Assembly: GCF_018977255.1 (NCBI RefSeq)
Contig: NW_024704743.1
Span: 3,100,001-3,164,000, forward strand
DNA: 64,000 nucleotides
Source: Callorhinchus milii
Taxonomy: Eukaryota
Direction: 5' to 3'
Below, piece after piece: positions 5,930 through 62,200 of the stretch. How positions within the stretch are numbered: the first letter of the stretch is position 1; the number at the start of each line of letters is the position of its first letter. The position numbers and the translations under genes are program-made. The notes under the pieces are model-generated. The model saw nothing but the letters and a program-made list of their open reading frames with translations. It was not told the origin of the DNA and ran no database searches.

Positions 5930-6258
5930 CGCTTAATAATAATAACCCTCGCATTCGATAGAGCGCTTTTCACGTCGGGAGAGGACGTCCCAAAGCGCTT
6001 CACGGAACACACTGTAAAGTGAATTGACTGTATATGTTTGTGGGCGAACGCGGCGGCCGATTGCGCACAGCGATGTCCCACAAACGGTCGTGGATTGAAA
6101 ATGACCAATTTATTATTGTTTTTGGTTTTGGAGGGATTATTATTAGGCTCTGTGTGGAGTAAGGAAACTTGCCCAAGGTTTCGCCCTCTGCCTGGGATTG
6201 AACTCAGGTCTCTCGCTTGCAAAGCGAGTGCTCTAACCGCTGAGCTACAGGACTCCAC
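5930..6258 (-). mobile_element. tRNA-derived SINE (tRNA-Ala-like head, L2-like tail ending (ATT)n), young short subfamily
   Basis: Head GGAGTCCTGTAGCTCAGCGGTTAGAGCACTCGC...GTTCAATCCC with A and B boxes; tail shared with dozens of copies in the window. Confidence 0.85.
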
Positions 6259-10900: not shown

Positions 10901-13405
10901 TTTATTGGTGAGTCTATAACTAGAGGATATAAACATACACAAGTCAGTAACAGATCTAACAGGGATTTTACGAGGAACGTTTTCATACAGAGGGTGGTGG
11001 CAGTGTGCAACTCACTGCCGGTGAGAAGCAGAAAGCATCAATGTGTTAAAGAGGAAACTTAACATGAAGGAGAGGGGAAAAGAGATAGTAATAAACACCG
11101 ACACATCCTAGTAGGCTTGGTCCATGTCATATCTCTATATGTAACTATACAACTTCTCTCCAACACAAGGGACATTGGGGAAAACTACTGTACTCTCGAC
11201 TGAGATCAGTAACTCAGCACAGATTTGGGTTTGAACTGGGAACCTTTTCATAGAATCACAGAATATTATAGGAGGCCATTTGGCCAAATTCTGCTCATCT
11301 CCCCTCTGGTTCTTTTGTCAATTATCTTAAATCCATGTCCCCTGGTTCCTGACCCACCTGTCAGAGGAAACAGTTTCTTCCTATCTACTCTATCAAAACC
11401 CATCATAATTTTGAACACCTGTATTAAATCTCCCCTCAACCATCTACGCTCTAAAGAGAAAAATCTCAGCTAGACAATCAGCAACCCTAGTCTGTATGGT
11501 CTTAATATACTCTCCCCAGGAGGGATGGAGGTGGTGATGAGAAGCATATTGAGAAACACAGACCTTACAGCCATTATTAGAGACTCACCTGACATTGGTG
11601 CCCTCCACCTCCAGCACCAGAGACTGGATGTCATTATCTGTGATCCTCTTTATGTGTCCATTTCTCACCTGAACACAAACAGATTGAGCTCAATCCACGA
11701 CTATTTGTGGGAGACTGCTGTGTGCAATTGGCTGCCATGTTTTGCCCACAAATTATATAGTCAATCCGCTTTACAGTATATTCTGTGAAGCGCTTTGAGA
11801 TGTCTCGAAGGCGTGATAATGTCAATTGCAAGAGGTCTTCAAAATGGTGAGAGGTTTTTAGAAGGTGATGAGAGAGAAACTCTTTCCACCCACCAGTCAC
11901 TAAGTCAGTATCTTGAGAGTATCAATTTAATATCCTCACCAAAACAACATAGCAAAGTTTGAATTTTACCAACGCAAACACAGTTAGTTATTTGCATGTA
12001 GAATACCTGACCAACCACAACAGTTGTTTTAAAATAAATTAACAATAATGATACTAATAATTGGAGACAGTGCGGGGAATGTTGAAACATCTGAAAGTAA
12101 TAATAATAATAATAATCCTTGCATTTGATATTGCGCCTTATCATGTCTTCTCGACATCTCAAAGTGCTTCACAGGATATACTGTAAAGTGAACTGGTTGT
12201 ATATTTTGTGGACAAAAGTGTCTCAAAGCAGCAATTGCTGTCAAGTGCAGTGACCTAACAGTATCTGTAGTGACTCGAGTATTCGAAGGCAGAAGCCATT
12301 TTGCACCCAGCAATGTCACCGACAGCCAGAAAATGTCAAGAACCATAACAACCCACAGCACCCTTCACACGGGCAGCGTGTCGAAAGCTGCGCTGTGACA
12401 AGGCTGGACGCCAAGCAAGGGAGAAGGAGAGGTGACCATAGGCGCGTTCAAAGAGGTGCGTCTTAAATTTGTTTTTTTGGGGGGTCATCCGGGTGTCTGA
12501 CATATGCGGAAACCAATCACCATGCGTCCCAACGACAATTTGAAATCCCAGAGATAGATAGTGCGAATGGAATACGCACTCTCTCCTGGAGGGATGTATC
12601 CAGCGTCCGGAGAGTAATAGGTGCAGGTTAGCAAAAGCCAAGGCTTGGGGACCCCAGAGTGTGCGTTGGGCTAACTGTTGGGAGTCTAAACCAGCTGAAT
12701 TCACACACCTCGCCATTGAGAACAACGTCTGGCCAGCATTCCCGCTGCTTATCCAGCAAGGACCACCCTCTCCGTGAGGGATTTGGCTTGCAGGGTGAAC
12801 GGGAGCCAAGTGGGAGGATTCCCTGCCCCAATGACTGGTCTGCCTTTCCAAGTCCAAGACGATGAGCCGGACTGTGTTGTGATCAGCAGTGCCCCGAAAT
12901 ACTGAGAACCTGCCCGGCTGAGGAATCGGACTACTGAGATCGCCACAGAAGGGCGGCTCGATTCAGATATTCCGTTGCCAAGCATCTCACCTTGAGCCGA
13001 TTCAACTCCAAGGAGACCCTGCTCACCTCGCCCTCTGACGCCCTCTGATACAGCGCTGGGCGGAGCGAGCGCTGCGTGGTTGGAGATGGCATCTTTCAGA
13101 TAACCGTCACAATAATGCAAGAACGATTACGATAAACAAACAACCCTTTCCGAGAGCCACGGGACAGGATCCAGTCTAACATGCGAAATCATTCTCGCGA
13201 TCCTTATACGCGACGCAGCGCCTTTCGCCTCAGGGGGGACGTCTCAAAGCTCTTCGCGGGAGGATTTACTGCACAGTGCGGCGGCCGTGCGTTTTGTGGG
13301 CAAACGCTGTGCGCGCGGCAACGTCCCACAAACAACCACGCAAGCGTGCGACCAATTTTAATCGGGGGAATTGTTGGCCAGGACACCAGGGGAGAGAGAG
13401 AGAGA

Positions 13406-13436
<31 letters not shown>

Positions 13437-13717
13437 GAACTCCCTTCTCTTTTCCAATGGCGCGGCGGGATCGTGAAGATCCACCCGGACAGGCGCAGAC
13501 CGGGCCCCTCGGTTTGACCTCTGGTCCGAAGGACGTGCGCCTCCGACGATTGCTGGGGGTGGGGGGTGGGGGGGGGGGGGGGTGGGGTCAATCTAACCCT
13601 CGGTGGGGTTTTGCCCACAAAATACGCGGTCGCTGCACCGTATGCGGTAAGATCGAAGCCGCGAAGCGCTTCGAGGTGTCTGAACGAGGCGATGAGGCGC
13701 TATCATCAAGTGCAGGG

Positions 13718-13758
<41 letters not shown>

Positions 13759-14536
13759 CTGTGTATATGTTGCTGTGAAGGTGGGGACCAACTGAGCATT
13801 TGGTCAAACGTTTCTATGAGATGTTATTTTGTCCCCCAAAATATCAGCCGCGTTTCACACACAGCACATGGCCTCCATCAAGGCCACACCCCCCCCCCCC
13901 CACCACCACCACCACCACCAGCCCTCTCTCTCGGACTCCCCCAGAGCCTGGGCCTAGGCTGCCCGCGCGCTCCCCCCGGGCTCGGGTACCTGGGCTCCTC
14001 GCTCTCCCCTCCCCTCCCCGGGGCCTGGGCTTAGGGCTCTCCCCTCCCCGGGAGGCCTGAGGCCCGGGGCTGCCCGCTCTCCCCTCCCCTCCTCCCCTCC
14101 CCTCCTCCCCCTCCTCGGGGGCCTGGGGCCCGGGGCTGCCCGCTCTCCCCTCCCCCCCACCCCGGGGCCCGGGCTCCCCGCCCTCCCCTCCCCGGGGCCC
14201 GGGGCTCCCCGCTCTCCCCTCCCCACCCCGGGGCCCGGGCTGCCCGCTCTCCCTCCCCTCCCTTCCCCGGGGCCCGGGGCTGTCCGCTCTCCCCTCCCCT
14301 CCCCGGGGCCCGGGGCTGCCCGCTCTCCCCTCCCCGGGGCCCGGGCTGCCCGCCCTCCCCTCCCCTCCCCGGGGCCCGGTCTGCCCGCCCTCCCCTCCCC
14401 TCCCCGGGGCCCGGGCTGCCCGCCCTCCCCCGCCCTCCCCGGGCTCGGGTACCTTCTTGTCCCAGATCTGGAGCGGTTTGCTGCCGATGCTGTACAGGAT
14501 GGAGAGGAAGCCGCTCTGGAAGGTGTTCTTGAACAT
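7963..14536 (-). CDS. CFAP20: Cilia- and flagella-associated protein 20 (CFAP20/BUG22); complement(join(7963..7965,9134..9244,9582..9770,10172..10283,11589..11668,14453..14536)), 192 aa
   Basis: The spliced translation [75 protein letters not shown]...[13 protein letters not shown] is nearly identical to vertebrate CFAP20 as I recall it. All introns are GT-AG and phase-consistent. The last (stop-only) exon is inferred. Confidence 0.97.
7985..8330 (-). mobile_element. CR1 LINE 3' fragment. Other copies: 1-230(+), 10850-11070, 11250-11470(-), 35645-36110(-), 44440-44650, 50040-50560(-), 59990-60460(-)
   Basis: ORF 8056..8331 reads TRGQRFKI...[17 protein letters not shown]...FKRELD, the typical CR1 ORF2 C-terminus. 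Confidence 0.85.
9134..9244 (-). CDS. CFAP20: CFAP20 exon 5 ([14 protein letters not shown]...VQNKSK)
   Basis: 111 nt; donor gtaagg. Confidence 0.95.
9582..9770 (-). CDS. CFAP20: CFAP20 exon 4 ([11 protein letters not shown]...ETLRVQ)
   Basis: 189 nt; long polypyrimidine acceptor; donor gtcagt. Confidence 0.96.
10172..10283 (-). CDS. CFAP20: CFAP20 exon 3 ([15 protein letters not shown]...FEVQ)
   Basis: 112 nt; within ORF 10073..10357; donor gtaaga. Confidence 0.96.
11589..11668 (-). CDS. CFAP20: CFAP20 exon 2 ([26 protein letters not shown])
   Basis: 80 nt; cag|GTG ... AG|gtgagt. Confidence 0.95.
14005..14447 (+). repeat. GC-rich minisatellite (about 30-35 bp, CCCCGGGGCCCGGGGCTGCCCGCTCTCCCCT) at the start of CFAP20 intron 1
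   Basis: About a dozen imperfect copies ending at the exon-1 donor. Confidence 0.9.
14453..14536 (-). CDS. CFAP20: CFAP20 coding exon 1 (MFKNTFQSG...WDKK)
   Basis: ATG at 14536; 84 nt; donor AAG|gtaccc. Confidence 0.96.
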
Positions 14537-14589
14537 GTCGCCGCCGCTCAGGGCTCCGCGGCCGCTGCTGCCCAGCGCCGGCCGGTTGC

Positions 14590-14720
14590 TGGGCTGGTCG
14601 CTAAGGCGGTTACCATGGCGCCGCTGCGGGGCGTTGCTAAGCGCGTTGCCATGGCACTCCCCCCCCCCCCCCCCGCCCCCCCCGGGTTCTGTTTGGGGAG
14701 CCACGTTACCCGGGTGATGC
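14590..14720. promoter_or_regulatory. CFAP20 CpG-island promoter with clustered RFX X-box-like motifs
   Basis: GTTACCATGGCGCC (14609-14622), GTTGCCATGGCACT (14645-14658) and GTTACCCGGGTGAT nearby. X-boxes are typical of ciliary gene promoters. Confidence 0.7.
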
Positions 14721-15584
14721 ACCCTTCCCAGGGGGGGGGGGGGGGGGGGGGGGGGGGTGACAGGTCATCGGGCAAAGAGGGTGCCGCACGCAGGAGTCCC
14801 GTCAGCTTTCCAACGGGGTTCGAGCCCCGCCCGGCCCCGCCCGCCCAGCCGGGGATCGGGTGGGGGGGGCGAAACGTTGGGCGGGCTTGCTTCGCTCGGC
14901 ACGTACCCCCCCCCCGCCCGGCCCCCGGCCCCCGGTCGCCCCGGTTTGTGGGAGGGGCGCGGCCGCCGGGTTCCGCCCGCAAAATGCGCGGTGGGTTCGC
15001 TTTGCGGCCCGTGCTGTGCGGCGCCTCGAGACGCCTCGAAGACGTGATAAGGCGCGACATCGAGTGCAAGGATTCTTACTGTTATTACCGAGTTACTGTA
15101 CACAGAGGGGATAGAGTCACTGTTCGGATCAGACGATAGGAACAGGAATAGGACATTCAGCCCCTCGAGCTGTTCCGCCATTCTGTAAGATTGTGGCTGA
15201 TCTGTACTTCAACTCCAATTATCTGTCTTTACTCCATATCCCTTGATACCCTTACCTAACAAATATCTATATATCTATTTTATATTAACATGGTCACTGT
15301 TAACATCAGGACTAACTCTAAACGTGAGATGGTGGATTTCCTCAAGTCCAAGATTCAGGGGATCCGCTCTGTTGCCTCCGTCCTTTCTATCTCCCTCTTT
15401 CCCCGGCTTCCACCTATCACTCCCTTTTGACCCTGTCACCCCCTCTACTCTCACCTCCATTATTTCCCAAATGTAGCCCATCACCTGCTCTCTTGACCCC
15501 ATGGCTACCCCTCTAACGTAGCTCCCAGCTCCACCTCCTTGTCGCCGTTTAATGGCACGGTACACACTCCTTTAAAAATCACCC

Positions 15585-16644
15585 CAGACACCCGCCGGTC
15601 ACGGTGACGGGTTTCCATGTGTGTCAGACACCCGCCCGGTCACGGTGACGGGTTTCCATGTGTGTCAGACACCCGCTGGTCACGGTGATGGGTTTCCATG
15701 TGTGTCAGACACCCGACCGGTCACGGTGACGGGTTTCCGTGTGTGTCAGACACCCGACCGGTCATGGTGACAGGTTTCCATGTGTGTCAGACACCCGACC
15801 GGTCACGGTGACAGGTTTCCATGTGTGTCAGACACCCGCCCGGTCACGGTGACGGGTTTCCATGTGTGTCAGACTCCCGCTGGTCACGGTGACGGGTTTC
15901 CATGTGTGTCAGACACCCGCTGGTCACGGTGATGGGTTTCCATGTGTGTCAGACAACCGACCGGTCACGGTGATGGGTTTCCATGTGTGTCAGACACCCG
16001 CTGGTCACGGTGACGGGTTTCCATGTGTGTCAGACACCCGACCGGTCATGGTGACGGGTTTCCATGCGTGTCAGACACCCGACCGGTCACGGTGACGGGT
16101 TTCCATGTGTGTCAGACACCCGCTGGTCACGGTGACGGGTTTCCATGTGTGTCAGACACCCGACCGGTCACGGTGATGGGTTTCCATGTGTGTCAGACAC
16201 CCGACCGGTCACGGTGATGGGTTTCCATGTGTGTCAGACACCCGACCGGTCACGGTGATGGGTTTCCATGTGTGTCAGACACCCGACCGGTCACGGTGAT
16301 GGGTTTCCATGTGTGTCAGACACCCGCTGGTCACGGTGACGGGTTTCCATGTGTGTCAGACACCCGCTGGTCACGGTGATGGGTTTCCATGTGTGTCAGA
16401 CACCCGCTGGTCACGGTGACGGGTTTCCCTGTGTGTCAGACACCCGCTGGTCACGGTGACGGGTTTCCCTGTGTGTCAGACACCCGCTGGTCACGGTGAC
16501 GGGTTTCCATGTGTGTCAGACACCCGCCGGTCACGGTGACGGTTTTCCGTGTGTGTCAGACACCCGGCTGGTCACGGTGACGGGTTTCCGTGTGTGTCAG
16601 ACATCCATAGGTCACGGTGACGGATTTCCGTGCGTGTCAGACAC
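15585..16644 (+). repeat. 40-41 bp minisatellite (CAGACACCCGCTGGTCACGGTGACGGGTTTCCATGTGTGT), about 26 copies
   Basis: Head-to-tail near-identical units without spacers. Confidence 0.97.
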
Positions 16645-16679
16645 TCAGTTGGTGGTGAGAAACTTCAGCCTCAGTGGCA

Positions 16680-16931
16680 GCGGACTACATCTCCCACGAT
16701 ACCTTGCGGTAGCTTCCGGTAGGTAGAGTTCGCGGAGGGAGGGGGGGGGAAGGGGGTGCGCGGCGGTGTCGCCTCACGTGACCAGCCAGCCAGCGCAGCT
16801 CCGCGCTCCGATTGGTCGGCCGCCGCGTCAATCGAGGCGGCGCGTCGGCTCGGCCCGCCTCCCCGCCGCCGCGCGCACGTGACCGTAACTTCCGGTGGCG
16901 GCGGCGGCGGCGCGTGCGGGCGGGCGGGTGG
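16680..16931 (+). promoter_or_regulatory. HGH1: HGH1 CpG-island promoter and non-coding exon 1 (donor GTGAGT at 16932)
   Basis: ZNF143/SBS-like ACTACATCTCCCACGATAC (16684-16702), two CACGTGAC E-boxes, an inverted CCAAT (GATTGG), two ETS CTTCCGG sites and a GC box. Confidence 0.7.
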
Positions 16932-17099
16932 GTGAGTGACGGTTGGAAATCAAATCTCTCGGCCGTTTAATGGCGGTTTGTAACCGTTAAAATTTTTTTT
17001 GTGTATATATATATATCTTTCTGACACGAGAGAGAGAGAGAGAGAGAGAAAGAGAGTCTGGTTCTCCGCCAACAGCGTAAGGTCAGCACTTGTATTATG

Positions 17100-17697
17100 A
17101 TAATAATAATAATAATAATAATAATAATCCTCGCATTTGATATAGCGCTTTTCACGTCGGGAGAGGACGTCCCAAAGCGCTTCGCGGAACACACTGTCGA
17201 GTGAATCGACTGTACGTTTGTGGGCGAACGCGGCAGCCGATTGCGCACAGCGACGCCCCACGGACAGTCGTGGGTTGAAGACGAGCAATTTTTATTCTTG
17301 GTTTTGGGTTTTCGGAGCGATTATTATTCGGGCTCCGCCTGTGCGGAGTAAGGAAACTTGCCCGAGGTTCGGCCCTCCGCCGGGGATTGAACCCGGGTCT
17401 CTCGCTCGCCACGTTTCCTTACTCCACACAGAGCCTCATAATAATCCCTCCAAAAAAACCAAAACAATAATAAATTGGTCATTTTCAATCCGCGACTGTT
17501 TGTGGGACATCGCTGTGTGCAATCGGCTGCCGCGTTCGCCCACAAATATACAGTCAATTCACTTTACAGTGTGTTCTGTGAAGCGCTTTGGGACGTCCTC
17601 TCCCGACCTGAAAAGCACTATATCAAATGCGAGGATTATTATTATTATTATTATTATTAAAGCGAGCGCTCTGTGACCGCTGAGCTGCAGGACTCCA
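17100..17697. mobile_element. Nested, oppositely oriented SINE pair in HGH1 intron 1
   Basis: A reverse copy (17100-17410, resuming 17659-17697) is interrupted by a forward copy (17413-17658). Confidence 0.85.
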
Positions 17698-17806
17698 TGT
17701 ACGCTCCTTGTATACTGCGTGAAGCCTAAGAATCAGAGGTATTTCTTCTCGTTGCAGAGTTTGGAGCGACGGTCGGGGGGAGCTGGAGCCAGGAGGAGGC
17801 TTTGCC

Positions 17807-18348
17807 ATGTTGGCTGAAGATCAGGCAAGGGAACTGCTATCTTTCCTGTCGCTGGACACACGGGCCGACGTGAAGGGCCAGGCCACGGGGTACCTGCTTG
17901 GGCTCACCGGCAGCAAGGATGGCTGCGAGTACTTGGGGCAGAGAGTGGACTTCCTGCGGGCGCTGCTGAGGCTAACCGAGGACCGCTCGCCTGCCGTGGT
18001 CAAGGATTGCTACTTCGTCCTCGTCAACCTGTCCGCGGAGGAGTCTGCCCACGACGCGCTGGTGAAGGGAGCAGGGCTGCTTCCAGTCCTCCTGAAAAAC
18101 TTACTGGACCCGGGCTACCAGTTTTCTGACCAGATCTGTTCCATTCTCTCCAATCTCTCCCGGAGAGAGGCCACATGTCCAGCGGTGTTGCGAGCCATCC
18201 AGACCGAAGAGATTGGTCTGGCCCGCATCGTGGAGATTTTTTGCACTGAGGGTTACAACAGGAAAGCTTCACTCCATTACTTGGGTCCCCTGCTCTCCAA
18301 TCTCACCCAGTTACCAGAGGCCAGGCATTTTGTCCTGGATAAGGACAG
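17807..18348 (+). CDS. HGH1: HGH1 first coding exon (acceptor at 17758, ATG 17807)
   Basis: N-terminal 180 codons of ORF 17807..18874; donor AG|gtcagt. Confidence 0.94.
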
Positions 18349-21300
18349 GTCAGTCATCTTTCCTTTGCCTCTAACTTGTAGTAAGGTTCAGGAATGTTTA
18401 AACATTAGATCTGTGCACTCAGCCGCCTCTACCCTCCCAACAGCTGCTTCCTCCCCATCTCCCCCCTACACACCAGCCCCTGCCCATCCCTCCCTCCACG
18501 CCTTCGAACCTGTCTCCCCTTCCTCTCTCACCACCATTATAACCCACTTGAAACCCACCAACTGCTCACCTCGACTCCATCCCGATCCTTATCTCCCAGC
18601 TCCATCTCTTTGTCCTTTTACTCATAGACCTCATCAACCTCTCCCTGTCCACTGGTACCGTTACCACCCCCTTATAAAAAGCCGTCATCACCCCTATTTT
18701 CAAAAAAAAATCCCTGCTCTCAAATTACTGCCCCATCTCCAACCTCCCTTTCCAAGGTCCTTGAACGAGTCGTTGCTTCCCAGCTTCGCTCCTTCATCTC
18801 GTGCCACTCCCGATACAAACCCTTCCAATCGGGTTTCCATGCTGCCCATAGGATTATTAACCCCGGAAAAGTGATCCGCCAATTGACTAACAACAGGGTT
18901 TCTACTTACTGCTAGGTAAACAGAGGCATGTGGAGTAAGGAAATTGGCCAACTTTTCGCCCTCCATGGGAATCGAACCCAGGTCCACTCGTTTGTGAGGC
19001 GAGGTGCTCTATCCACTAAGCTACAGGGCTGCACTGTATGTGGTGATGAGATGGGGGGAATTAACTGTCTCCCTGTGTCTGTCTAATGCAATGTCTGTGT
19101 TTGTATCACAGGTGTGTGGTTCAGCGGCTCCTGCCCTATACCCAGTTCCAGGACTCTACTGTGCGGAGAGGAGGTGTGGTGGGCACCCTCAGGAACTGCT
19201 GCTTTGACTATTGTGAGTCTTCTGCATGTTTTTATTATGCCCCTCTTTAGCTCATGTTCAGATTTGGGCTGGTGACAACTCTTGTCCAAGCTGTCCACCA
19301 ATGTCTCTGCTTTCTTTCACCTTCTTTCTCTGTGTTATTCTATCTTTAATCATTTCTATTTCCTTTTGGTCTCCATGAGCCCATATCCCCTCTGCCTTAT
19401 AAACTCTACTCTAATCCTATTCCCTGCTCTCTCTCCATCGTGTCTGTGCTGCTGCTCGCTCCCCCACTGGAACTCTCTACTCTAAACCCATTCCCTGCTC
19501 TCTCCCCATCATGTCTGTACTGGTGCTCACTCCCCCACGGAAGCTGGCTACTCCAGTACCATTCCCTGCTCTCTCCCCATTATGTCTGTGCTGGTGCTCA
19601 CTCCCCTCCGGAGCTCTCTACTTGAGTCCCAGGTAAGGTCGTAGTAGTACAAGTTCGTACCCACAGGAGAAGCAGGTCGAGGAATGCCATGTTTGCTTAG
19701 AAGATGAGCGATGCGGTTTGGCATTTGTCTCCTAAATGAACAAGTGATCTGCATGGATTACAGGGACAGCCCCTGCTTCCCCTCCCCCTTGTTTTATACC
19801 ATACAGTTAAAATATTATGTCTGTCTTAATCTCAGATATCTTCTTCCTTCCTATCAGCCTACCACTCGTGGCTGTTGAGCGATCAAGTGGACCTCCTGCC
19901 TTTCCTGCTGCTGCCGCTGGCAGGTCCTGAGGAATTAAGCGAGGATGAAATGGAAGGTAAGATCAGGCAGACTGCTTTGGCAAGAGTGCATGGGGGTAAC
20001 CAGCACCAAATCCTTCTCCGTTCTCTGCAGGCGGAGCAGTTGGGTTTACAGTTAGCCTCATTGTCGCCTGGGATATCATTTGCTGGGTGGTGAGGGTGTT
20101 GAGCTGACTGCCTGTGATGTGTGTTGGCTGTGCTGTGTGTGGGCTGTGCTTTATGTAGGCCAATTGCCTGTGCTGTGTATTACAGGGTTGCCTGTGGATC
20201 TCCAGTATCTGCCCGAGGACAAGCAGCGAGAGAAGGACCCAGATATCCGCAAAATGCTCATTGAGGCCATTAACCTTGTAAGTGATGGACGAGGTGGGGT
20301 GTCTGTGTTGTGGGGGTGTCTGTGTACTGGAATTCACAAATGAGGTCCTCTCTCTGTGTGAAAGGGTCCCTCTGCCTCCTTATCCTCCTTGATCTCTTCA
20401 CTTCTCTCAACATCATACCATTCTCCTCCACCGCCTCTCCTCCTGCAGCGTGTCCCTCACTCAGTGGAACCACATTCTACTGGTTCCAGCCCTACTTAAC
20501 TAAATGGCACTTTGTCATAGCACTTTGTCTCTGCAATGGAGTTCCAGAGGGTGGGAGCAGAACAACAAATTGTATTTATACAGCGTATTTTACGATAGGT
20601 TGACCTCCCAAGGCACTGGACCATAATTTGCATCTGACCTGGGGGTTGCGAAGCATCAGTGGTCGGATCTTCAGCCTTTCTGTTCCACCCTTTGGAACTC
20701 CATCCCTCAGTTCCTTTGCCTCGCTCCTTCCCTTGCTTCTTTCAAGGCACGTCTCAAGACTCATTCTCTTTGACAGTGCCTTCGGGCACCTTCCTACCCC
20801 CACATTTCCTGCCCTCCACCCACCCCGATCCCAACCCTTAGCTTGGGTCCAAATCCCTGACTGTCCAGCTCCTCGGGACGTCCTCCCGACGTGAAAAAAG
20901 CTATACACATGTAATTTGTTGTTAGACAGGTATCAGAAAGATTAGAGAGCTCAGGTGGGCTAATAGGGCTGAAGGAGGCGGTAGCAGCAGGGAAGGAGAG
21001 ACTGTGAAAGGATAGGAAGGTGCACGTGAGGATCTTGAAGCTGACGTGCTGGGGAACCAGTAATGTCACTTGAACATCAATCCCTTGCTCTTACCTCTCA
21101 GTTGACGGCGACTAAAAGTGGGCGAGAGCAAGTGCGGGAGAGGAATGCCTATGTGGTGGTGCGGGAACTGCACAAGTGGGAGCCGGAGCCGGACGTTCAA
21201 GCAGCCTGTGAGAAGCTAGTGCAGGTGGGAACACAGGAGCTCTGCTCTCTATCTCTCCCTTTCCCTGTCCCTTCCCATCACTGTGTGTCACTGCTCTCTC

Positions 21301-51400: not shown

Positions 51401-54400
51401 AGAACAGATGACTCATTTTTACAGAAGGTACGATCTCACACGGCTACCGTATTATAGCAAACTTTTTTCCCCCTTTCCCCGCCCCCCCCGTCTCCACGGT
51501 TGTTAACTCATTCTCCAAGTGTTGAGTTGGTTGGGAGGTTCCAGCAGTTGGTGTTCATTCCAAACTACAGCTTATTCTCGCGGTCCCATTTCTAGGCTTC
51601 TTCTGTCCCATTAACACAGGCACAGAATTGCACAGCAGCTCCAACATCTGGGTCAGTTAAATCTGGGCGCTCACTTCCAACCAGCTCGCCCTGCCGCAAT
51701 ACCCACACACTCCTCACTCACTCCCTGAAGCCCAGGCGTTGTGCACATAAGCATCCGGCAGTCCACAGCAAAGGCAACGTCCAGCCTTCACGCCGTGACA
51801 CACGATGAACCGGATCAGGCGCTCAATCCAACTGCCTTCAATGGGAAAGGCGAGGGCTGCACAACCCCGTCCACAGCGCGCACACGGGGAGGGGTATATC
51901 ACAGCGCGCACACGGGGAGGGGTATATCACAGCGCACACGGGGAGGGGTATATCACAGCGCGCACACGGGGAGGGGTATATCACAGCGCGCACGGGGAGG
52001 GGTATATCACAGCGCGCACGGGGAGGGGTATATCACAGCGCGCACACGGGGAGGGGTATATCACAGCACACACGGGGAGGGGTATATCACAGCGCGCACA
52101 CGGGGAGGGGTATATCACAGCGCGTACACGGGGAGGGGTATATCACAGCGCGTACACGGGGAGGGTATATCACAGCGCACACGGGGAGGGGTATATCACA
52201 GTGCGCACACGGGGAGGGGTATATCACAGCGTGTACACGGGGAGGGGTATATCACAGCGCGCACACGGGGAGGGGTATATCACAGCGCGCACACGGGGAG
52301 GGGTATATCACAGCGCGCACACGGGGAGGGGTATATCACAGCGCGCACACGGGGAGGGGTATATCACAGCGCGCACACGGGGAGGGGTATATCACAGCGC
52401 GCACACGGGGAGGGGTATATCACAGCGCGCACACGGGGAAGGGTATATCACAGCGCGCACACGGGGAAGGGTATATCACAGCGCGCACACGGGGAAGGGT
52501 ATATCACAGTGTGTACACGGGGAGGGGTATATCACAGTGTGTACACGGGGAGGGGTATATCACAGCACACACACGGGGAGGGGTATATCACAGCACACAC
52601 ACGGGGAAGGGTATATCACAGCGCGCACACGGGGAAGGGTATATCACAGCGCGCACACGGGGAAGGGTATATCACAGCGCGCACACGGGGAAGGGGAAAT
52701 CACAGTGCGCACACGGGGAGGGGTATATCACAGTGCGTACACGGGGAGGGGTATATCACAGTGTGTACACGGGGAGGGGTATATCACAGTGTGTACACGG
52801 GGAGGGGTATATCACAGTGCGCACACGGGGAGGGGTATATCACAGTGCACACACGGGGAGGGGTATATCACAGTGCGCACACGGGGAGGGGTATATCACA
52901 GTGCGCACACGGGGAGAGGTATATCACAGTGCGCACACGGGGAGGAGTATATCACAGCGCGCACACGGGGAGGGGTATATCACAGCGCGCACACGGGGAA
53001 GGGTATATCACAGCGCGCACACGGGGAAGGGTATATCACAGCGCGCACACGGGGAAGGGTATATCACAGTGTGTACACGGGGAGAGGTATATCACAGTGT
53101 GTACACGGGGAGGGGTATATCACAGCACACACACGGGGAGGGGTATATCACAGCACACATGGGGAGGGGTATATCACAGCACACACACGGGGAGGGGTAT
53201 ATCACAGCACACACACGGGGAAGGGTATATCACAGCGCGCACACGGGGAAGGGTATATCACAGCGCGCACACGGGGAAGGGTATATCACAGTGCGCACAC
53301 GGGGAGGGGTATATCACAGTGTGTACACGGGGAGGGGTATATCACAGTGTGTACACGGGGAGGGGTATATCACAGTGTGTACACGGGGAGGGGTATATCA
53401 CAGCACACACACGGGGAGGGGTATATCACAGCACACACGGGGAGGGGTATATCACAGCACACACGGGGAGGGGTATATCACAGCACACACACGGGGAGGG
53501 GTATATCACAGTGTGTACACGGGGAGGGGTATATCACAGCACACACGGGGAGGGGTATATCACAGCGCACACGGGGAGGGGTATATCACAGCGCACACGG
53601 GGAGGGGTACATCACAGTGTGTACACGGGGAGGGGTATATCACAGCACACACACGGGGAGGGGTATATCACAGCACACACACGGGGAGGGGTATATCACA
53701 GTGTGTACACGGGGAGGGGTATATCACAGCGTGTACACGGGGAGGGGTATATCACAGCACACACACGGGGAGGGGTATATCACAGCGCACACGGGGAGGG
53801 GTACATCACAGTGTGTACACGGGGAGGGGTACATCACAGCGTGTACACGGGGAGGGGTATATCACAGCGTGTACACGGGGAGGGGTATATCACAGCGCAC
53901 ACGGGGAGGGGTATATCACAGCGCACACGGGGAGGGGTACATCACAGTGTGTACACGGGGAGGGGTACATCACAGTGTGTACACGGGGAGGGGTACATCA
54001 CAGTGTGTACACGGGGAGGGGTACATCACAGAGTGTACACGGGGAGGGGTACATCACAGCGTGTACACGGGGAGGGGTATATCACAGCGTGTACACGGGG
54101 AGGGGTATATCACAGCGTGTACACGGGGAGGGGTATATCACAGCATGTACACGGGGAGGGGTATATCACAGCATGTACATGGGGAGGGGTATATCAAAGC
54201 ACACACACGGGGAGGGGTATATCACAGCGTGTACACGGAGAGGGGTATATTACAGCGCGCACACGGGGAGGTGTATATCACAGCGCGCACACGGGGAGGG
54301 GTATATCACAGCGCGCACACGGGGAGGGGTATATCACAGCGCGCACACGGGGAGGGGTATATCACAGCGCGCACACGGGGAGGGGTATATCACAGCGTGT

Positions 54401-55497
54401 ACACGGGGAGGGGTATATCACAGCGTGTACACGGGGAGGGGTATATCACAGCGTGTACACGGGGAGGGGTATATCACAGCGTGTACACGGGGAGGGGTAT
54501 ATCACAGCGTGTACACGGGGAGGGGTATATCACAGCACACACGGGGAGGGGTATATCACAGCACACACGGGGAGGGGTATATCACAGCGTGTACACGGGG
54601 AGGGGTATATCACAGCGTGTACAACGGGGAGGGGTATATCACAGCACACACGGGGATATCACAGCACACACGGGGAGGGGTATATCACAGCACACACGGG
54701 GAGGGGTATATCACAGCACACACGGGAGGGTATATCACAGCACACACGGGAGGGGTATATCACAGCACACACGGGGAGGGGTATATCACAGCGTGTACAC
54801 GGGGAGGGGTATATCACAGCGTGTACACGGGGAGGGGTATATCACAGCACACACGGGGAGGGGTATATCACAGTGTGTACACGGGGAGGGTATATCACAG
54901 CACACACGGGGAGGGGTATATCACAGCTTGTACACGGGGAGGGGTATATCACAGTGTGTACACGGGGAGGGTATATCACAGCACACACGGGGAGGGGTAT
55001 ATCACAGTGTGTACACGGGGAGGGTATATCACAGCACACACGGGGAGGGGTATATCACAGCGTGTACACGGGGAGGTGTATATCACAGCACACACGGGGA
55101 GGGGTATATCACAGTGTGTACACGGGGAGGGGTATATCACAGTGTGTACACGGGGAGGGGTATATCACAGCACACACACGGGGAGGTGTATATCACAGCA
55201 CAGGGAGGGGTATATCACAGTGTGTCACGGGGAGGGGTATATCACAGGACACGGGGAGGGGTATATCACAGCGCGCAACGGGAGGGGTATATCACAGCGT
55301 GTACACGGGGAGGGGTATATCACAGCACACACGGGGAGGGGTATATCGCAGTGTACATGGTGGTGGGGGGGGGCACGGGGGCAGTACCTGAGCCAGGCCG
55401 CCTGGCTGCCCTCCTCTGGCTTCCGCTCCTCCCGCCTCAGGCTGGGGCTCCTCGCCACCTTCGGAGCCGCCGCTCGCCTCTTGGCTGAGCCGCTCAT
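36400..55497 (-). CDS. DGAT1: Diacylglycerol O-acyltransferase 1, 5' part only; complement(join(<36400..36440,44788..44875,55388..55497))
   Basis: MSGSAKRR...[46 protein letters not shown](K) matches the DGAT1 N-terminus. Exon sizes 88 and 41 nt match mammalian DGAT1 exons 2 and 3 as I recall them. Later exons are not found in the window. Confidence 0.9.
44788..44875 (-). CDS. DGAT1: DGAT1 exon 2 ([29 protein letters not shown])
   Basis: 88 nt; GT-AG. Confidence 0.93.
51872..55360 (+). repeat. 26-28 bp minisatellite (ACAGCGCGCACACGGGGAGGGGTATATC), about 125 copies, at the start of DGAT1 intron 1
   Basis: Direct reading; the 28-aa period in all three + frames equals 3 x 28 nt. Confidence 0.97.
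55388..55497 (-). CDS. DGAT1: DGAT1 exon 1
   Basis: ATG 55497 in a CpG island; donor AG|gtactg; phase 2 matches exon 2. Confidence 0.8.
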
Positions 55498-55709
55498 GTC
55501 TTCTCCTCACCCTCTGGCCCGTGGGTGGGTGTGAGAGAGGGGGAACGATAACCGGCTCCGAAGAGCCCCTCTTCAGCGTCTTCGAGTCACTTCGAGTCTG
55601 AACCGAGTCTATCGGCAGCGTCTCTCCCGCGCGAGTCGTCGTCGCCGCCGCCGTTCTCCGCGAGGCGCTTTAACGGTTGGTTGGCTCTCGCGCTGCCCGC
55701 CCTCATCCC

Positions 55710-56005: not shown

Positions 56006-58769
56006 CCGCTATCTTGCTTTGTGGGTGGGGCTGTGCAAGTGCAAGTTGTTTTTGTTGTTGAGAATTTTCGGCTGTCGCCCGGGCATAAAATCGGGCATTT
56101 GCCTTGCGGCTGTTTGTGGGCCCCCTCTTAATAATCCTCGCATTTGATATAATAATAATAATAATAATAATCCTCGCATTTGATATAGCGCTTTTCACGT
56201 CGGGAGAGGACGTCCCAAAGCGCTTCACAGAACACACTGTAGAGTGAATTGACTGTATGTTTGTGGGCGAACGCGGCAGCCAATTGCGCACAGCAATGTC
56301 CCACACACAAACAGGCGTGGGTTGAAAATGACCAATTTATTATCGTTTTGTTTTGGAGGGATTATTATAAGGACCCATTGCTTCGCTATCACTTTTTCAC
56401 TTTTTCTCTTTGACCGAGCCTTCAGCTCCCCTCTCGACTCTCTTCCCCCTCCTCGCTCCCTCCCTTCTCTCCCCTCACCCTGACCATTTCCCCCCTGCTC
56501 GGGTCATGACCCAACTGTGCAGCGCCTTGGGACGTCCTCCTGACGTGAAAGGCGCTTTATAAATGGAATCTTGTTGTTGTTGTTGTGGTATCACCACTTC
56601 CTTGAATCAGAGATTGCTAAGCCACAAGACTTTGAGAGATTTACATTTCCTGATCCAAAAGCTGCACGTACATTAGCTTCTGCTCGATCAGTCAGTCTTT
56701 CTTTACCTTTCTAAGAAAGATGCCACCTTTGTATCTTCTTAAATTGTTAATACTATTCGTAAATGAAGCCTGTCTGTCTGGTAACTGTCAGGTGGAGATA
56801 CAGAGCTCTGAGACGTTATCTTACACAAAGGGCGTTTCATATATATTGTAAGTCATGCATGTTACGCTTGTTAATCTCGAGGGAATAATAGTCCAGAATT
56901 AGACTGAGGTGGAGCAGTATTCCCATCAGTTACCGTCACAGATTTCCGAATTCTTAATTAAGAAATCTGTTCAGAAATACCGCAAAACTGACCTCAAAAA
57001 TAGAATTGTAACTGCTACAAGTGTACACCGTGTAAACATTGATTAGCTGCTGAACTATATTAAAGCTTGTGGCAGGATATGGAGCATGATGCTTTGGGGG
57101 GGGGGGGGGGGAATGGGCAATCCCATCCCTTGTGTTTGTGCAGGACTTGGAAAACAGGCATTCATACTTTGTGTGAGTCTCTGTTTGGATCCATGCTCAT
57201 CCAATCAATCTAGAATAAAATATAATAATCCTTGCATTTGATACAGCATGTTACCACATCCTTGAGACATCTCAAAGCCCTTCTCTGATTATACTCTTGC
57301 TGCGGCTCAGTGGCAAGAGCGCTCGTCCAGGCAAACCAAAGGACCCGGGTTCGTTTCCCGGACTGGGCAAGAAACGAGGGTTTCCTTCCGCCACGCACCT
57401 CGCTGGTCTTCCCTCGCTCCCCCCCGTACACAAAATACAACTAAATCAGAACTGCATCCCCTCCTCACCCGCACAAAACTCCATCACCCCCATCGCAGCG
57501 GTCCTCGCCGGGCTCCGCTGGTTCCAACAACAACAACAACAACAAGATTACATTTGTATCACGCCTTTCACGTCGGGAGTGCGTCACGAGGCGCTGGACA
57601 GTGCCTTTCAGACACCGAACAGTGTACAGAATTTTCCAATCACCGAATGGATCGGTTTCACGATACTCTCAGTCGTTTTCATATCATTTCATGCCCTCGC
57701 ACCTCCCCACCTCTCCGATTTGCTTGCTCCTCTCTCCGCTGCCTCCGCTTGGCTGCCTCCACCCACCGCCTCTTCGTCCCTCAGCTCCTCTGCTCCACCA
57801 TCGGCGGTTGCGCCTTCAGTCACTACGCCCCGAAACTTTGGAACTCTTTCCATCAATCCCTCCCTCTGCACTTTCAAATCACGCCTAAAGACTTTCCCTT
57901 TTGATCGTGATTACGGTCACCTCCCCCTTCCCTCTCCCCCGCCCCCCGGCTCGGGATCAGGCTCCGTCACTGTCAAGCGCTAACCCACGTGAAGGGCGCT
58001 ATAATGTATAAATATATATATATATAAATGCAACTTGTTGTTTGTCTCGCAGTAAGTAGGAACCCGGTTGTCAATCCACCGATTGGTGGATCGCTTTTCT
58101 GGGGGTAATAATCCCTCCTGAAAAAAAGAAATAATAATAATTTGGTCGCTCAGTCCACGACTGTTTGTGGCACGTCGCTGCATGCAATTGGCTGCCGCAT
58201 TTTCGCCCACAAAATACGACGACAACAACAGCAACGCGGATTTATACCGCGCCCTCCGCGCCGGACGGCGTCTCAGAGAGCGCTTCACAGTCACGGATCC
58301 CGGGGTCGAGCCGGGGGGTGGGGCGGGGGGTGGTGGGGGGGGGGTGGGGGAAGGTGACCAAAGGTGCGGTCGAAAATAATAATAATAATAATAATAATCC
58401 TTGCATTTGATATAGCGCTTTTCACGTCGGGAGAGGACGTCCCAAAGCGCTTCACAGAACACACTGTAAAGTGAATTGACTGTATATTTGTGGGCGAACG
58501 GAAAGAAAGGTCTTCAGCAGAGACCTGAAAATAGGAAGGGAGGGAGTGAGACGAAGGGAGTGAGGAAGGCAGTTCCAGAGCCTCGGGGCATAGTGGCTGA
58601 AGGCGCGGCCGCCGAGGGTGGAGCGGAGGGCTCGGGGGACCAGGAGGAGGCCAGACCCCGGGGGGTCACTGCACTTTACAGTCTGTCCCGTGAAGTGCTT
58701 TGAGAAGCCGCGAAGACGGGATAAGGCGTTGTATCAAATCATCATTGTTATTATTTCAGTGTCATCCCG

Positions 58770-59164
58770 ACCAAGGACTACAACCCCCAGAATGCTTGTC
58801 GCGCGCGCATGCTCCCTGCCTCGGGGCGAGAGGCGGGATGCGGACGATGCATTCCGACCCAATCCGGAGAGGAGCGCCAATGATCGACATCGTTCTAAAC
58901 CAATGAAAAGCGGATCCCGCCTCCCACAGGCCACCCCCCCCCCCCGCCAGTTGATTGACGTGAGTCCTGAGCAATCGGAACGAGACCCTGGTGGGTTGAC
59001 GTTGGATGGAACCAATCGAAATTCGAGACTGTGGCCACGCCCGGCGTTCTGTGGACCAATCAGAGTGGGAGGCGGGTCGCTCGCAGCCGCAGCCGCCGTT
59101 CGGGACGCGCGGGGCTTCAGTTGTCGCTCGTCTCTGACGGTGAAGTAAGTGACGGGCGGCGTCC
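58770..59164 (+). promoter_or_regulatory. TBC1D20-like CpG-island promoter and 5' UTR
   Basis: Canonical ZNF143 motif ACTACAACCCCCAGAATGC (58777-58795), NRF1-like GCGCGCGCATGC, five CCAAT boxes, TGACGTGA and a GC box. Confidence 0.7.
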
Positions 59165-59249
59165 ATGAGCGGGAGGAGAGGCCGGAGATCGAGTGCCGGT
59201 CATCATGGAGCCGCCGCCGCCGCTCTCCGTGATGGCAAAGCGGCCACAG
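59165..59249 (+). CDS. TBC1D20: TBC1D20-like exon 1 (MSGRRGRRSSAGHHGAAAAALRDGKAAT)
   Basis: 85 nt; donor G|gtatgg; phase matches exon 2. Confidence 0.75.
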
Positions 59250-62200
59250 GTATGGCTCCTTAAAGGGGAGGTTCAGGGGTGTTAAAGGGAAAGTCGTTCA
59301 GAGATTTAAAGGGGAGGTTCGGGGGTTTAAAGGGGAGGTTCGGGGTTTAAAGGGGAGGTTCGGGGTTTAAAGGAGGAGGTTCGGGGTTTAAAGGGGAGGT
59401 TCGGGGTTTAAAGGGGAGGTTCTGGGTTTAAAGGGGAGGTTCGGGGGTTTAAAGGGGGAGGTTCGGGGTTTAAGGGGGAGGTTCGGGGTTTAAAGGGGAG
59501 GTTCGGGGTCTAAAGGGGAGGTTCGGGGTTTAAAGGGGAGGTTCGGGGTTTAAAGGGGAGGTTCGGGGGTTTTAAAGGGGGAGGTTCGGGGTTTAAAGGG
59601 GAGGTTCTGGGTTTAAAGGGGAGGTTCGGGGGTTTAAAGGGGAGGTTCGGGGGTTTAAAGGGGAGGTTCGGGGTTTAAAGGGGAGGTTCGGGGTTTAAAG
59701 GGGAGGTTCGGGGTTTAAAGGGGAGGTTCGGGTTTAAAGGGGAGGTTCGGGGGTTTAAAGGGGGAGGTTCGGGGTTTAAAGGGGAGGTTCGGGGGTTTAA
59801 AGGGGAGGTTCGGGGGTTTAAAGAAGGAGGTTTGGGGGTTTAAAAGCGGAGGCTCAGTTATCTAAGCTGTGAACATGCTGCGGTGGTGCCTTTACACACT
59901 TAATAATAATAATAATAATAATAATTATTGCATTTGATGTAGCGGTTTTATCACATTTTGCTGACGTCCCGAAGCGCTTACGCAGAATTACATGGAAGAT
60001 ACAGCACAGAAACAGGCCATTCGGCCCAACTGGTCTACGCTCCACGTGAGCCTCCTCCTGCCCTCCCTCAACTAAACCTACCAGCACAACCTTCTATTCC
60101 TGTCTTCCTCTTGTGGTAGTCATACTAATTAATAAGAGTAATAATAATCCTTGCATTTGGTATAGCGCTTTTCACGTCTTCCAGAGGTACCTATTTCGCT
60201 TCCCCTTAAATGCATCTATGCCATTCGCCTCAACTACCCCTTGTGGCAGCAAGTTCCGCATTCCCACCACTCTCCGGGTAAATAAGTTTCTTCTGACTTC
60301 CCTATTTGATTTATTGCTATTTAATATATATATACACACACACATATATATATATATATTAATGGCCTCTGGTTTTGGTCTCCCCCACAAGTGGAAACAT
60401 CTTCTCCATGTCTACCCCTATCAAAACCTTTCATCATTTCAGAGACCTCTATCAGGTCACCAACTCACTGCTGTCCGCGACTGGCGGCCGCGTTTCACCC
60501 ACAAAATACACAGTCACCTCACTTTACAGTATCTCCTGCGAAGCGCTTTGAGACATCTCAATTGACGGGATAATGCAAGGATTACTATTACTTAATTTAA
60601 ATTCTTTCATCGCAGCCGACTGCAGTTGTGGTTCTTCTCCACCGATGGGGGGCACTCCGCTATTTGTTTTGCTCACATTAATAATCATTGCACTTATTCC
60701 CCCCAAGGTGAAGGGCGCGCCATAAATGTAATTTTGTTGTTGTTCTGCTTTTGTTGTAATTTCCCACCCCCCCCCCTTTTTGCACTATTAACATCTCTTT
60801 TCCCCTGGTTTGTTGCAATTGCCCCCATTGTTTTGCATCATTAACACCTCTTTCACCCATCATCCCCTGTTTACCCCATGTTCTCCGTCCCTTGCCTCCC
60901 CTGTTGTGGACCCGAGACGTTGATTCACTTTCCTTTTTCCATAGGTGCTGCCTGACCTGCTGAGTGTTCCCAGCGACTTCTGCTACTCCACTTATTCATA
61001 GATTGGCTGCCGCTTTTCACTCACAAAATATACTTTACAGTATGTACTGTGAAGCGCTTTGAGACATCTCGATGATGTGATAAGGCACTATATCAAATGC
61101 ACGGATTATTATAATTATTATAAAGTCCCGATGTAAAGTTTGAATCCACAACCTCTTACCTAGAGCTAGAATATCCTCTCTGTTCGAAATGCAGTACAGA
61201 GTATTTACTTGTATTCACTGTGTTTCTATCTCAGTGGATCCTGGGGCCAGAAAGCGCCTGAAGCTGCTGGAAATCCATCGGGCCCTGAACGCTGACCCTG
61301 TGGACGTGGAGGCCTTGCGGAGGGCGGCAGTCAGTGAGGGGGGGTTGCTGACCAACGAGATCCGCAGGAAGGTCTGGCCCAAGCTGCTAAATGTCAATGT
61401 TTACAATCTACCTCCCAAACCAGGTAACATGTGTGTGCGTGTGTGTGCATGTGTCAATGTGTGCATGCAGGCTGTTCCTGTGTGTGTGTGTGTCAGTGTG
61501 TGCATGCACGCTGTCCCAGTGTGTGTGTGTGTCAATGTCTATGTGTGCGTTAGTGTGTGCATGCAGGTTGTATGTGTGGGGGTCAGGAGGAGGAAATTGG
61601 TGGGTGTGTATGCCTGTGTCTATGTGTGCTTCCAGGGAAGCACGTGCATCGATCTGTATGTGTACGGTATGTGTGTTTGTGAGGGGCACGTTTGTGTGTG
61701 AGCGGTGCGTGTAGGTGCGATGGAGGGCTATGTTGGTGAAAGGGCGGTGCGTGTGTGAGGGAGGTGTTTGTGAGGTTATGTGTGTGTAAGGGGTGTGCGC
61801 GCGTGCGAGGTGGTATGTGAAGTGTGTACGTGAGGTTGTGTGCGTGTGTATACGTGTGAGGGAGATGTGTGTATGTGTGTGGGAGATGTGTGTGTAAGGG
61901 AGCTTGAATTTTATAGCAGCTTAATATCAAATGTCTCGAAGCGCTTCAGATTATTATGTCAATAATAATCCCTCCAAAACAAAACAATAATAAGTTGGTC
62001 ATTTTCAATCGACGACTGTTTGTGGGACATTGCTGTGCGCAATTGGCCGCCGCGTTTCGCCCACAAATATACAGTCAAATCACTTTACAGACTATTCTTT
62101 GAAGCGCTTTGAGACGTCGCGACGACGTGAAAAGCACTATATCAAATGCAAGGATTACTATATATTATAAGTGTAGTGATTGTTTTTACGGGCAAATAAG

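Follow-up and report, generated by a model that had tools for sequence, protein, structure and literature searches.

Probable conversion of an old SINE into CpG-island promoter sequence by GC-biased gene conversion in Callorhinchus milii

In mice and humans, PRDM9 steers recombination away from promoters. GC-biased gene conversion (gBGC) at promoters is a process known also in birds. In the dog, where PRDM9 has been lost, changes from A/T to G/C (W>S) are reported to be raised at unmethylated CpG islands, with gBGC creating island sequence (PMC4350167). Placental mammals that keep PRDM9 are described as having PRDM9-independent hotspots beside it (PMC11161765; review PMC13186367), and the same coexistence is cited for snakes in PMC11161765 and PMC11323403. 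Passages of PMC11323403 describe a GC peak at vertebrate transcription start sites (TSSs) and propose recombination at TSSs as its source. They include a 5' GC peak in shark and lamprey, whose cause is said there to need verification, and cite teleosts as being without strong gBGC. In the elephant shark, TSS methylation is reported to be inverse to expression (PMC5437953).

Here, we analyse a locus of Callorhinchus milii where a near full-length old SINE in the island promoter of a CFAP20-like gene has probably been rewritten from A/T to G/C by gBGC, at a promoter-centred hotspot operating alongside an apparently intact PRDM9. The case is like that reported for the dog in its W>S excess at unmethylated islands and in gBGC turning sequence into island. 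It is unlike it in that the dog is without functional PRDM9, whereas C. milii has several PRDM9-like copies; furthermore, the ancestral state is taken here from a SINE consensus and in the dog study from related genomes (PMC4350167). As described for placental mammals in PMC11161765, including bovids with multiple copies, GC* peaks at hypomethylated promoter-like sites despite PRDM9. In contrast to those mammals, the species is a cartilaginous fish and not an amniote, the footprint is one of substitutions, and the PRDM9-like copies are known from sequence. Our proposal of recombination at TSSs as the GC source agrees with that of PMC11323403, where the shark data given concern composition only, the flanks being close to the genome in GC; here, SINEs in the flanks allow substitutions to be polarised. 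The mechanism is well known, and the cartilaginous-fish case is apparently unreported: our literature search, which left most subscription papers outside its reach, returned nothing on gBGC at promoters or on a cluster of PRDM9 genes in this group.

The window (the whole stretch of 64,000 nucleotides that was analysed) starts 3.1 Mb from the start of its contig, which is 125.6 Mb long, in a genome assembly of 991.5 Mb. It holds 71 matches to one SINE family, whose subfamilies range from old through intermediate to young. This SINE resembles the CmiSINEs (SINE2-1_CM type), an identity based on structural description and not on a comparison of consensuses. Like SINE2-1_CM and SINE2B-1_CM as presented in PMC5499810, it has a tRNA-like head, a length of ~350 nt, a microsatellite tail and a high copy number, and shares its 3' end with older elements. 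The SINE2-1_CM type is described there with a tRNA-Ala head, a CORE body and an L2-2_CM tail, and the term 'GC content' has no occurrence in the main text of that paper. Our search profile, built from 100 long copies, gave 600 matches in the window and 80 promoter loci together. The reference consensus was derived from 290 copies that have no promoter motif within 2 kb and served as the ancestral state in place of an outgroup; only columns common to all subfamily consensuses and well supported in the alignment were counted.

The focal SINE sits between two divergent first coding exons, of a CFAP20-like gene on the minus strand and an HGH1-like gene on the plus strand. The features of the locus are as follows.

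14351..15050, no strand: CpG island, promoter region of the CFAP20-like gene, called with SINE matches and tandem repeats masked
14453..14536, minus strand: first coding exon of the CFAP20-like gene (PF05018, E=1.9e-8; ATG at 14536)
16551..17100, no strand: CpG island upstream of the HGH1-like exon, from the island call
17807..18349, plus strand: first coding exon of the HGH1-like gene (Pfam DUF383, E=1.4e-16)

HGH1 is the name that we assume for the DUF383 gene at 17807..18349, and the island at 16551..17100 is likely its promoter. The SINE head had not been detected when the island at 14351..15050 was called and was hence left unmasked; it lies ~280 bp from the CFAP20-like ATG. Rfam gave no matches in 12500-18500. 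Minisatellites that are GC-rich or contain CpG adjoin four promoter islands of the window (14000-14450, 15580-16640, 51880-55340 and 59290-59830); minisatellite growth is often tied to recombination. Two more island promoters lie at 55380-55560 and 59100-59250 and have apparent first exons on opposite strands.

A sequence-only reading had placed the SINE at 14940..15085. The element is present there, but it is longer, and its head had been missed. We divide it into three parts.

14815..14903, plus strand: tRNA-derived SINE head, strongly G/C-shifted (16 W>S, 0 S>W, 8 W>W or S>S, 11 gap columns)
14904..14960, plus strand: SINE middle, with the A/T-rich linker lost or unrecognisable; the alignment is unreliable and holds most of the 93 gap columns of the element
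14961..15085, plus strand: SINE 3' region of the old subfamily with its short ATT-type tail (27 W>S, no genuine S>W)

The head aligns with a score of 47.4, reached by 0 of 2000 shuffles (maximum 44.3) and by 0 of 132 promoter-core controls; its B-box-like word is degraded and it carries new GC-box-like words. No target-site duplication stood out among the direct repeats around the copy.

Changes in the focal copy run in one direction. Against the consensus of the 290 far copies, the 20 differences counted earlier at 14981-15035 are reproduced, as 19 W>S, one C>G and no S>W. The 115 aligned sites of 14961-15077 show 27 W>S (22 transitions and 5 transversions), 2 S>S and 0 W>W; a single C>A falls at a subfamily-diagnostic column and disappears when the old-type consensus is used, which gives 28 W>S and 0 S>W. 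Over the whole element (14815-15077), we count 191 identities, 54 W>S, 0 S>W and 12 neutral changes. The copy is now 75% GC with 39 CpG, compared with 47% GC and 23 CpG in the consensus. At strictly non-CpG-prone positions (those with no C before and no G after them), the copy has changed at 8 of 26 W sites, where far old-type copies have changed at 4.7% (binomial p=1.6e-5), and the shared columns give 19 of 46 W sites against 5.0% expected. The copy was chosen post hoc, for being extreme, and its W>S fraction is exceeded by one of the 371 promoter-set copies with at least 30 W sites. It is not simply older, because its neutral changes (2 in 115 sites) have accumulated about as fast as those of far old-type copies. 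Expressed as B, the 8-10-fold excess of W>S would be roughly 8-10 for this copy, whereas the extra B near promoters averages ~1.2.

Similar shifts had been noted earlier elsewhere in the window. They are clear at 13190-13400, 13440-13730 and 17115-17420, but only weak or mixed at 57-58.7 kb, where the ratios of W>S to S>W are 10:4 at 57290-57420 (with 6 neutral changes), 12:8 at 58030-58225, 8:1 at 58225-58330, 0:0 at 58393-58498 and 12:4 at 58640-58750. The same reading saw no shift in mid-intron copies, and in line with it W>S exceeds S>W in only 2 of 42 mid-gene copies (19.1-50 kb). The clear cases and one neighbouring copy are listed here with their W>S:S>W ratios.

13200..13376, minus strand: older SINE copy in intron 1 of the CFAP20-like gene, 29:4
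13607..13723, plus strand: older SINE tail in intron 1, 19:0 (tail only)
17123..17412, minus strand: young-subfamily SINE copy, 31:0, a few of which may reflect imprecision of the consensus
17408..17640, plus strand: neighbouring young copy, farther from the island, 8:3

The last two adjoin each other at 17123-17640 in inverted orientation and are sharply unequal in their shift, which is stronger in the copy nearer the island. As a whole, the young subfamily shows little shift (GC* 0.54 near vs 0.45 far, on few counts), and signs of recent activity come from single copies only, such as 17123-17412 and 5941-6239 (12:0). Among contigs of four other sequencing runs matched to 16660-17790, other SINE copies prevailed in their thousands, and two unpolarised variants came from outside the SINEs.

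To locate promoters elsewhere in the genome without reference to SINEs, we used a YY1-type motif, taken as a promoter marker, with 180 matches against 1 in the reversed control. The YY1 set comprises 80 of 100 listed sites and 529 SINE matches. The 20 omitted sites are 14 in two tandem arrays and 6 close neighbours of kept sites, and 80 further motif matches were unlisted. A ZNF143 set was built similarly: a long ZNF143-type pattern gave 11 sites and was swapped for a shorter pattern, which has 159 sites compared with 19 for its reversed control. Of these, 60 of 100 listed sites with 326 SINE matches were used, 40 listed sites being omitted and 59 further sites unlisted. Island-like sites number 65 of 80 in the YY1 set and 26 of 60 in the ZNF143 set.

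In the YY1 set, non-CpG GC* is 0.73, 0.69 and 0.63 at 0-250, 250-500 and 500-1000 bp from the motif, 0.41 at 1-1.5 kb and 0.36-0.39 beyond. Tests of near against far copies omitted those at 1-1.5 kb (62 in the YY1 set, 53 in the ZNF143 set). The 122 near and 345 far copies of the YY1 set differ in GC* by 0.29, a value reached by 0 of 5000 within-locus permutations, with the same sign in 49 of the 60 loci that have both. The ZNF143 set repeats the gradient more weakly (0.55-0.57 near vs 0.38-0.42 far; 6 of 5000 permutations), and its motif sites without a CpG island are shifted too (0.51 vs 0.40). Old-type copies alone show the gradient, with GC* 0.77 vs 0.38 at chromosome ends and on small chromosomes. 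Relative to 34 de novo islands in 264 kb around the window, GC* is 0.55-0.66 up to 1 kb away and 0.35 at distances of more than 8 kb. These genome-wide estimates are probably conservative, because the profile search missed the focal head.

The classes of change behind this gradient were scaled by W>W plus S>S in the YY1 set. Near promoters, W>S transitions rise 2.06-fold and W>S transversions 2.13-fold, while S>W transitions fall to 0.62 and S>W transversions to 0.72; a fixation bias of matching size (extra B 1.18) predicts factors of 1.70 for W>S and 0.52 for S>W. The W>W and S>S changes are not raised, their rate being 0.72-fold that of far copies, which makes the near copies somewhat younger or less diverged. 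Upstream and downstream copies show the same pattern, and there is no clear strand asymmetry. The footprint expected of gBGC is found in several respects: a non-CpG W>S excess with an S>W deficit and W>W/S>S unaffected in both sets, transversions shifted as transitions are and no strand asymmetry in the YY1 set, and a peak at islands that is gone within 1-2 kb. The sequence-only reading held that CpG retention alone would not suffice, and the bias persists with CpG-prone sites removed in the focal copy and in both sets. It had also ascribed the shift to gBGC; the substitution spectrum fits this, and neither CpG removal nor the subfamily comparison refutes it, while the promoter-centred recombination with fixation bias that it calls for is what we infer.

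Recombination is generally higher at chromosome ends and on small chromosomes. With chromosome position as a proxy for recombination, pooled near-promoter GC* is 0.66-0.71 in these regions, compared with 0.45-0.48 in the interiors of macrochromosomes, where transversion counts are few. Interiors are lower in both motif sets, and the interaction of promoter distance with region reached significance in the YY1 set (p=0.006) without being replicated in the ZNF143 set (p=0.28). In the mechanism that we propose, unmethylated open promoter chromatin would draw meiotic breaks, mismatches in heteroduplex would be repaired toward G/C, and new CpGs would last because they are not methylated, so that a SINE with a consensus of 47% GC could become island sequence of 75% GC. 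The strength of the shift would follow regional recombination, and the promoter hotspot would operate alongside the PRDM9 genes.

A local mutation bias with no fixation bias, in which promoter DNA that is unmethylated or transcribed would lose G/C by mutation more rarely and gain it more often, is an unlikely source of the whole pattern, although part of it is visible. CpG decay, from which alone hypomethylation at islands is read, drops from ~0.24 away from promoters to 0.12-0.16 near them in the YY1 set (0.12 closest), and CpG-creating W>S changes rise most (2-3-fold, vs 1.4-1.5-fold for other W>S in that set; TG>CG 0.142 near vs 0.045 far, CA>CG 0.081 vs 0.040). Methylation therefore shapes part of the signal and of the raw count. 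Human TSSs are reported to have a mutation peak of their own, but as described in PMC13712754 it hits all mutation types with a net loss of G/C. The joint rise of non-CpG W>S and fall of S>W, transversions included, with neutral classes not raised and no clear strand asymmetry, argues against mutation bias, as does the comparison of chromosome interiors with ends, which are nearly equal in CpG decay (0.17 vs 0.14) and very unequal in GC* (0.49 vs 0.73). Selection for G/C, CpG or GC boxes in promoters, with the SINE co-opted into the CFAP20-like promoter, would fit the loss of the A/T-rich SINE middle and the six GC-box words of the focal copy (compared with 0 in the consensus and an expected 2.05 from dinucleotide shuffling; 9 of 1000 shuffles, in a single post hoc test). 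As the general cause it is improbable: many copies are shifted, up to 1 kb on both sides of the motif, W>S changes occur across 57 of 58 W columns, and the shift varies with chromosomal position. Selection on the focal copy could nevertheless have acted on top of gBGC, and this copy, with its GC-box words, may not be the neutral reporter that the sequence-only reading saw in the SINE.

An artefact, be it a promoter-preferring GC-rich subfamily, alignments over-extended into GC-rich flanks or an assembly error, seems very unlikely. The family does have several subfamilies, with a promoter-enriched EM cluster at K=6, the young subfamily supplies a somewhat larger share of the near copies (21 of 122) than of the far ones (38 of 345), and the focal letters are those of one assembly. 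The counts, however, use only the shared, well-supported columns described above, and over-extension would not yield G/C sites fully kept with ~40% of A/T sites changed. A GC-rich subfamily as the source of the focal copy, which the sequence-only reading had named as a way to refute gBGC, was rejected: among 40 scored of 1785 candidates, the best genomic match is 79% identical, and the focal copy has at most 8 of its 19 changes in common with any near-promoter copy. Among 72 near-promoter old-type copies, no W column is changed in more than 33%.

The best 29 look-alikes of the focal copy in the genome are enriched beside islands (8 of 29 vs 11 of 160 control pieces, Fisher p=0.003). The other 21, likewise selected for likeness, have no island within 1.5 kb, yet reach a GC* of 0.71; shifted copies are therefore not confined to promoters. 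Those without islands may point to other hotspots or to islands that are weak. Many of the GC-shifted look-alikes, located in the outer ~5 Mb of contigs and away from called islands, are candidate non-promoter hotspots. For the young copy at 17480-17635, 16 of its 29 nearest matches have a CpG island no more than 1.5 kb away, compared with 11 of 160 controls; the GC shifts may be parallel ones, the young subfamily may insert preferentially at promoters, or both may apply.

If the mention of PRDM9-independent hotspots in the sequence-only reading meant a species without PRDM9, C. milii is not such a species, having several PRDM9-like copies with all domain types. A search for SSXRD gave 7 matches on small contigs (C668, C737, C936, C969, C1143, C1226 and C1362), 5 of them over the Pfam cut-off. 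In six contigs, SSXRD precedes an exon with a zinc knuckle and PR/SET, a further pair of SET exons and an array of zinc fingers; in C969, the two middle SET exons are absent from the assembly. The three SET exons and the zinc-finger exon are in frame in C668, C936 and C1362. The SET exons are closest to PRDM9 in PDB (E=1e-25, 3e-20), and alignments show tyrosines kept at the human PRDM9 catalytic positions. We take these three SET tyrosines to be the catalytic residues of PRDM9. Supplement 1 of PMC5519329 lists the catalytic residues as Y,Y,Y.

Six identical KRAB-like exons were found (Pfam KRAB E=0.042, below the cut-off); C1096 and C1419 are also among the contigs with KRAB-like exons. One exon precedes SSXRD by 11 kb on C969 and three follow a finger array, an arrangement that suggests a head-to-tail cluster of the predicted genes. 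The order KRAB-SSXRD-SET-ZF is present together with the tyrosines, but it is assembled across contigs, no single contig holding a whole gene. The six compared copies represent about three sequence groups, and the zinc-finger arrays of the cluster differ, with 4-8 fingers each. Indel errors or frameshifts are seen in several contigs, and some contigs are near-duplicates differing by indels, so the copy number is only approximate. The zinc fingers are 91-93% alike in DNA. In four arrays, the share of diversity at DNA-contact columns (those used in PMC5519329) is 0.23-0.46, compared with 0.314 for C. milii and at least 0.459 for complete orthologs in an excerpt of the published table. A ZCWPW2-like zf-CW exon is located at C2:46037431-46037574 (PDB E=2e-18); no ZCWPW1-like exon was identified among the 6 zf-CW matches, which is no proof of absence.

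PMC5519329 describes two C. milii PRDM9 copies as KRAB-SET with slow fingers and expression undetected, while PMC8892340 calls the C. milii ortholog complete. Callorhinchus is unmentioned in one supplement of the latter, whose Table S4 may already list PRDM9 copies and domains; PMC11600626 has nothing on sharks. The cluster may alter the published domain call for the lineage (KRAB-SET, two copies, PMC5519329). Judged from these gene models, PRDM9 loss is not the cause of the promoter GC shift, and the PRDM9-like genes may be active.

A wider reading is only tentative. It holds that C. milii combines an expanded tandem cluster of complete PRDM9 genes (including SSXRD, reported missing in 2017) with strong promoter recombination, that promoter hotspots with strong gBGC alongside PRDM9 are the ancestral jawed-vertebrate state, and that SINEs can be used as a recombination map. 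If true, several hundred thousand SINE copies would provide a dated single-genome map of past recombination and of the conversion of SINEs to CpG islands, and promoter-centred gBGC would be neither amniote-specific nor dependent on PRDM9 loss. The result would then bear on the point about shark and lamprey that PMC11323403, in the passages cited, leaves open. The SINE family offers a cheap test, in which GC* is obtained as a function of distance and element age from a single genome plus a consensus.

Finally, two tandem arrays have the YY1-type motif within their repeat unit, at C3:76279298-76279445 and C8:7818543-7818814.
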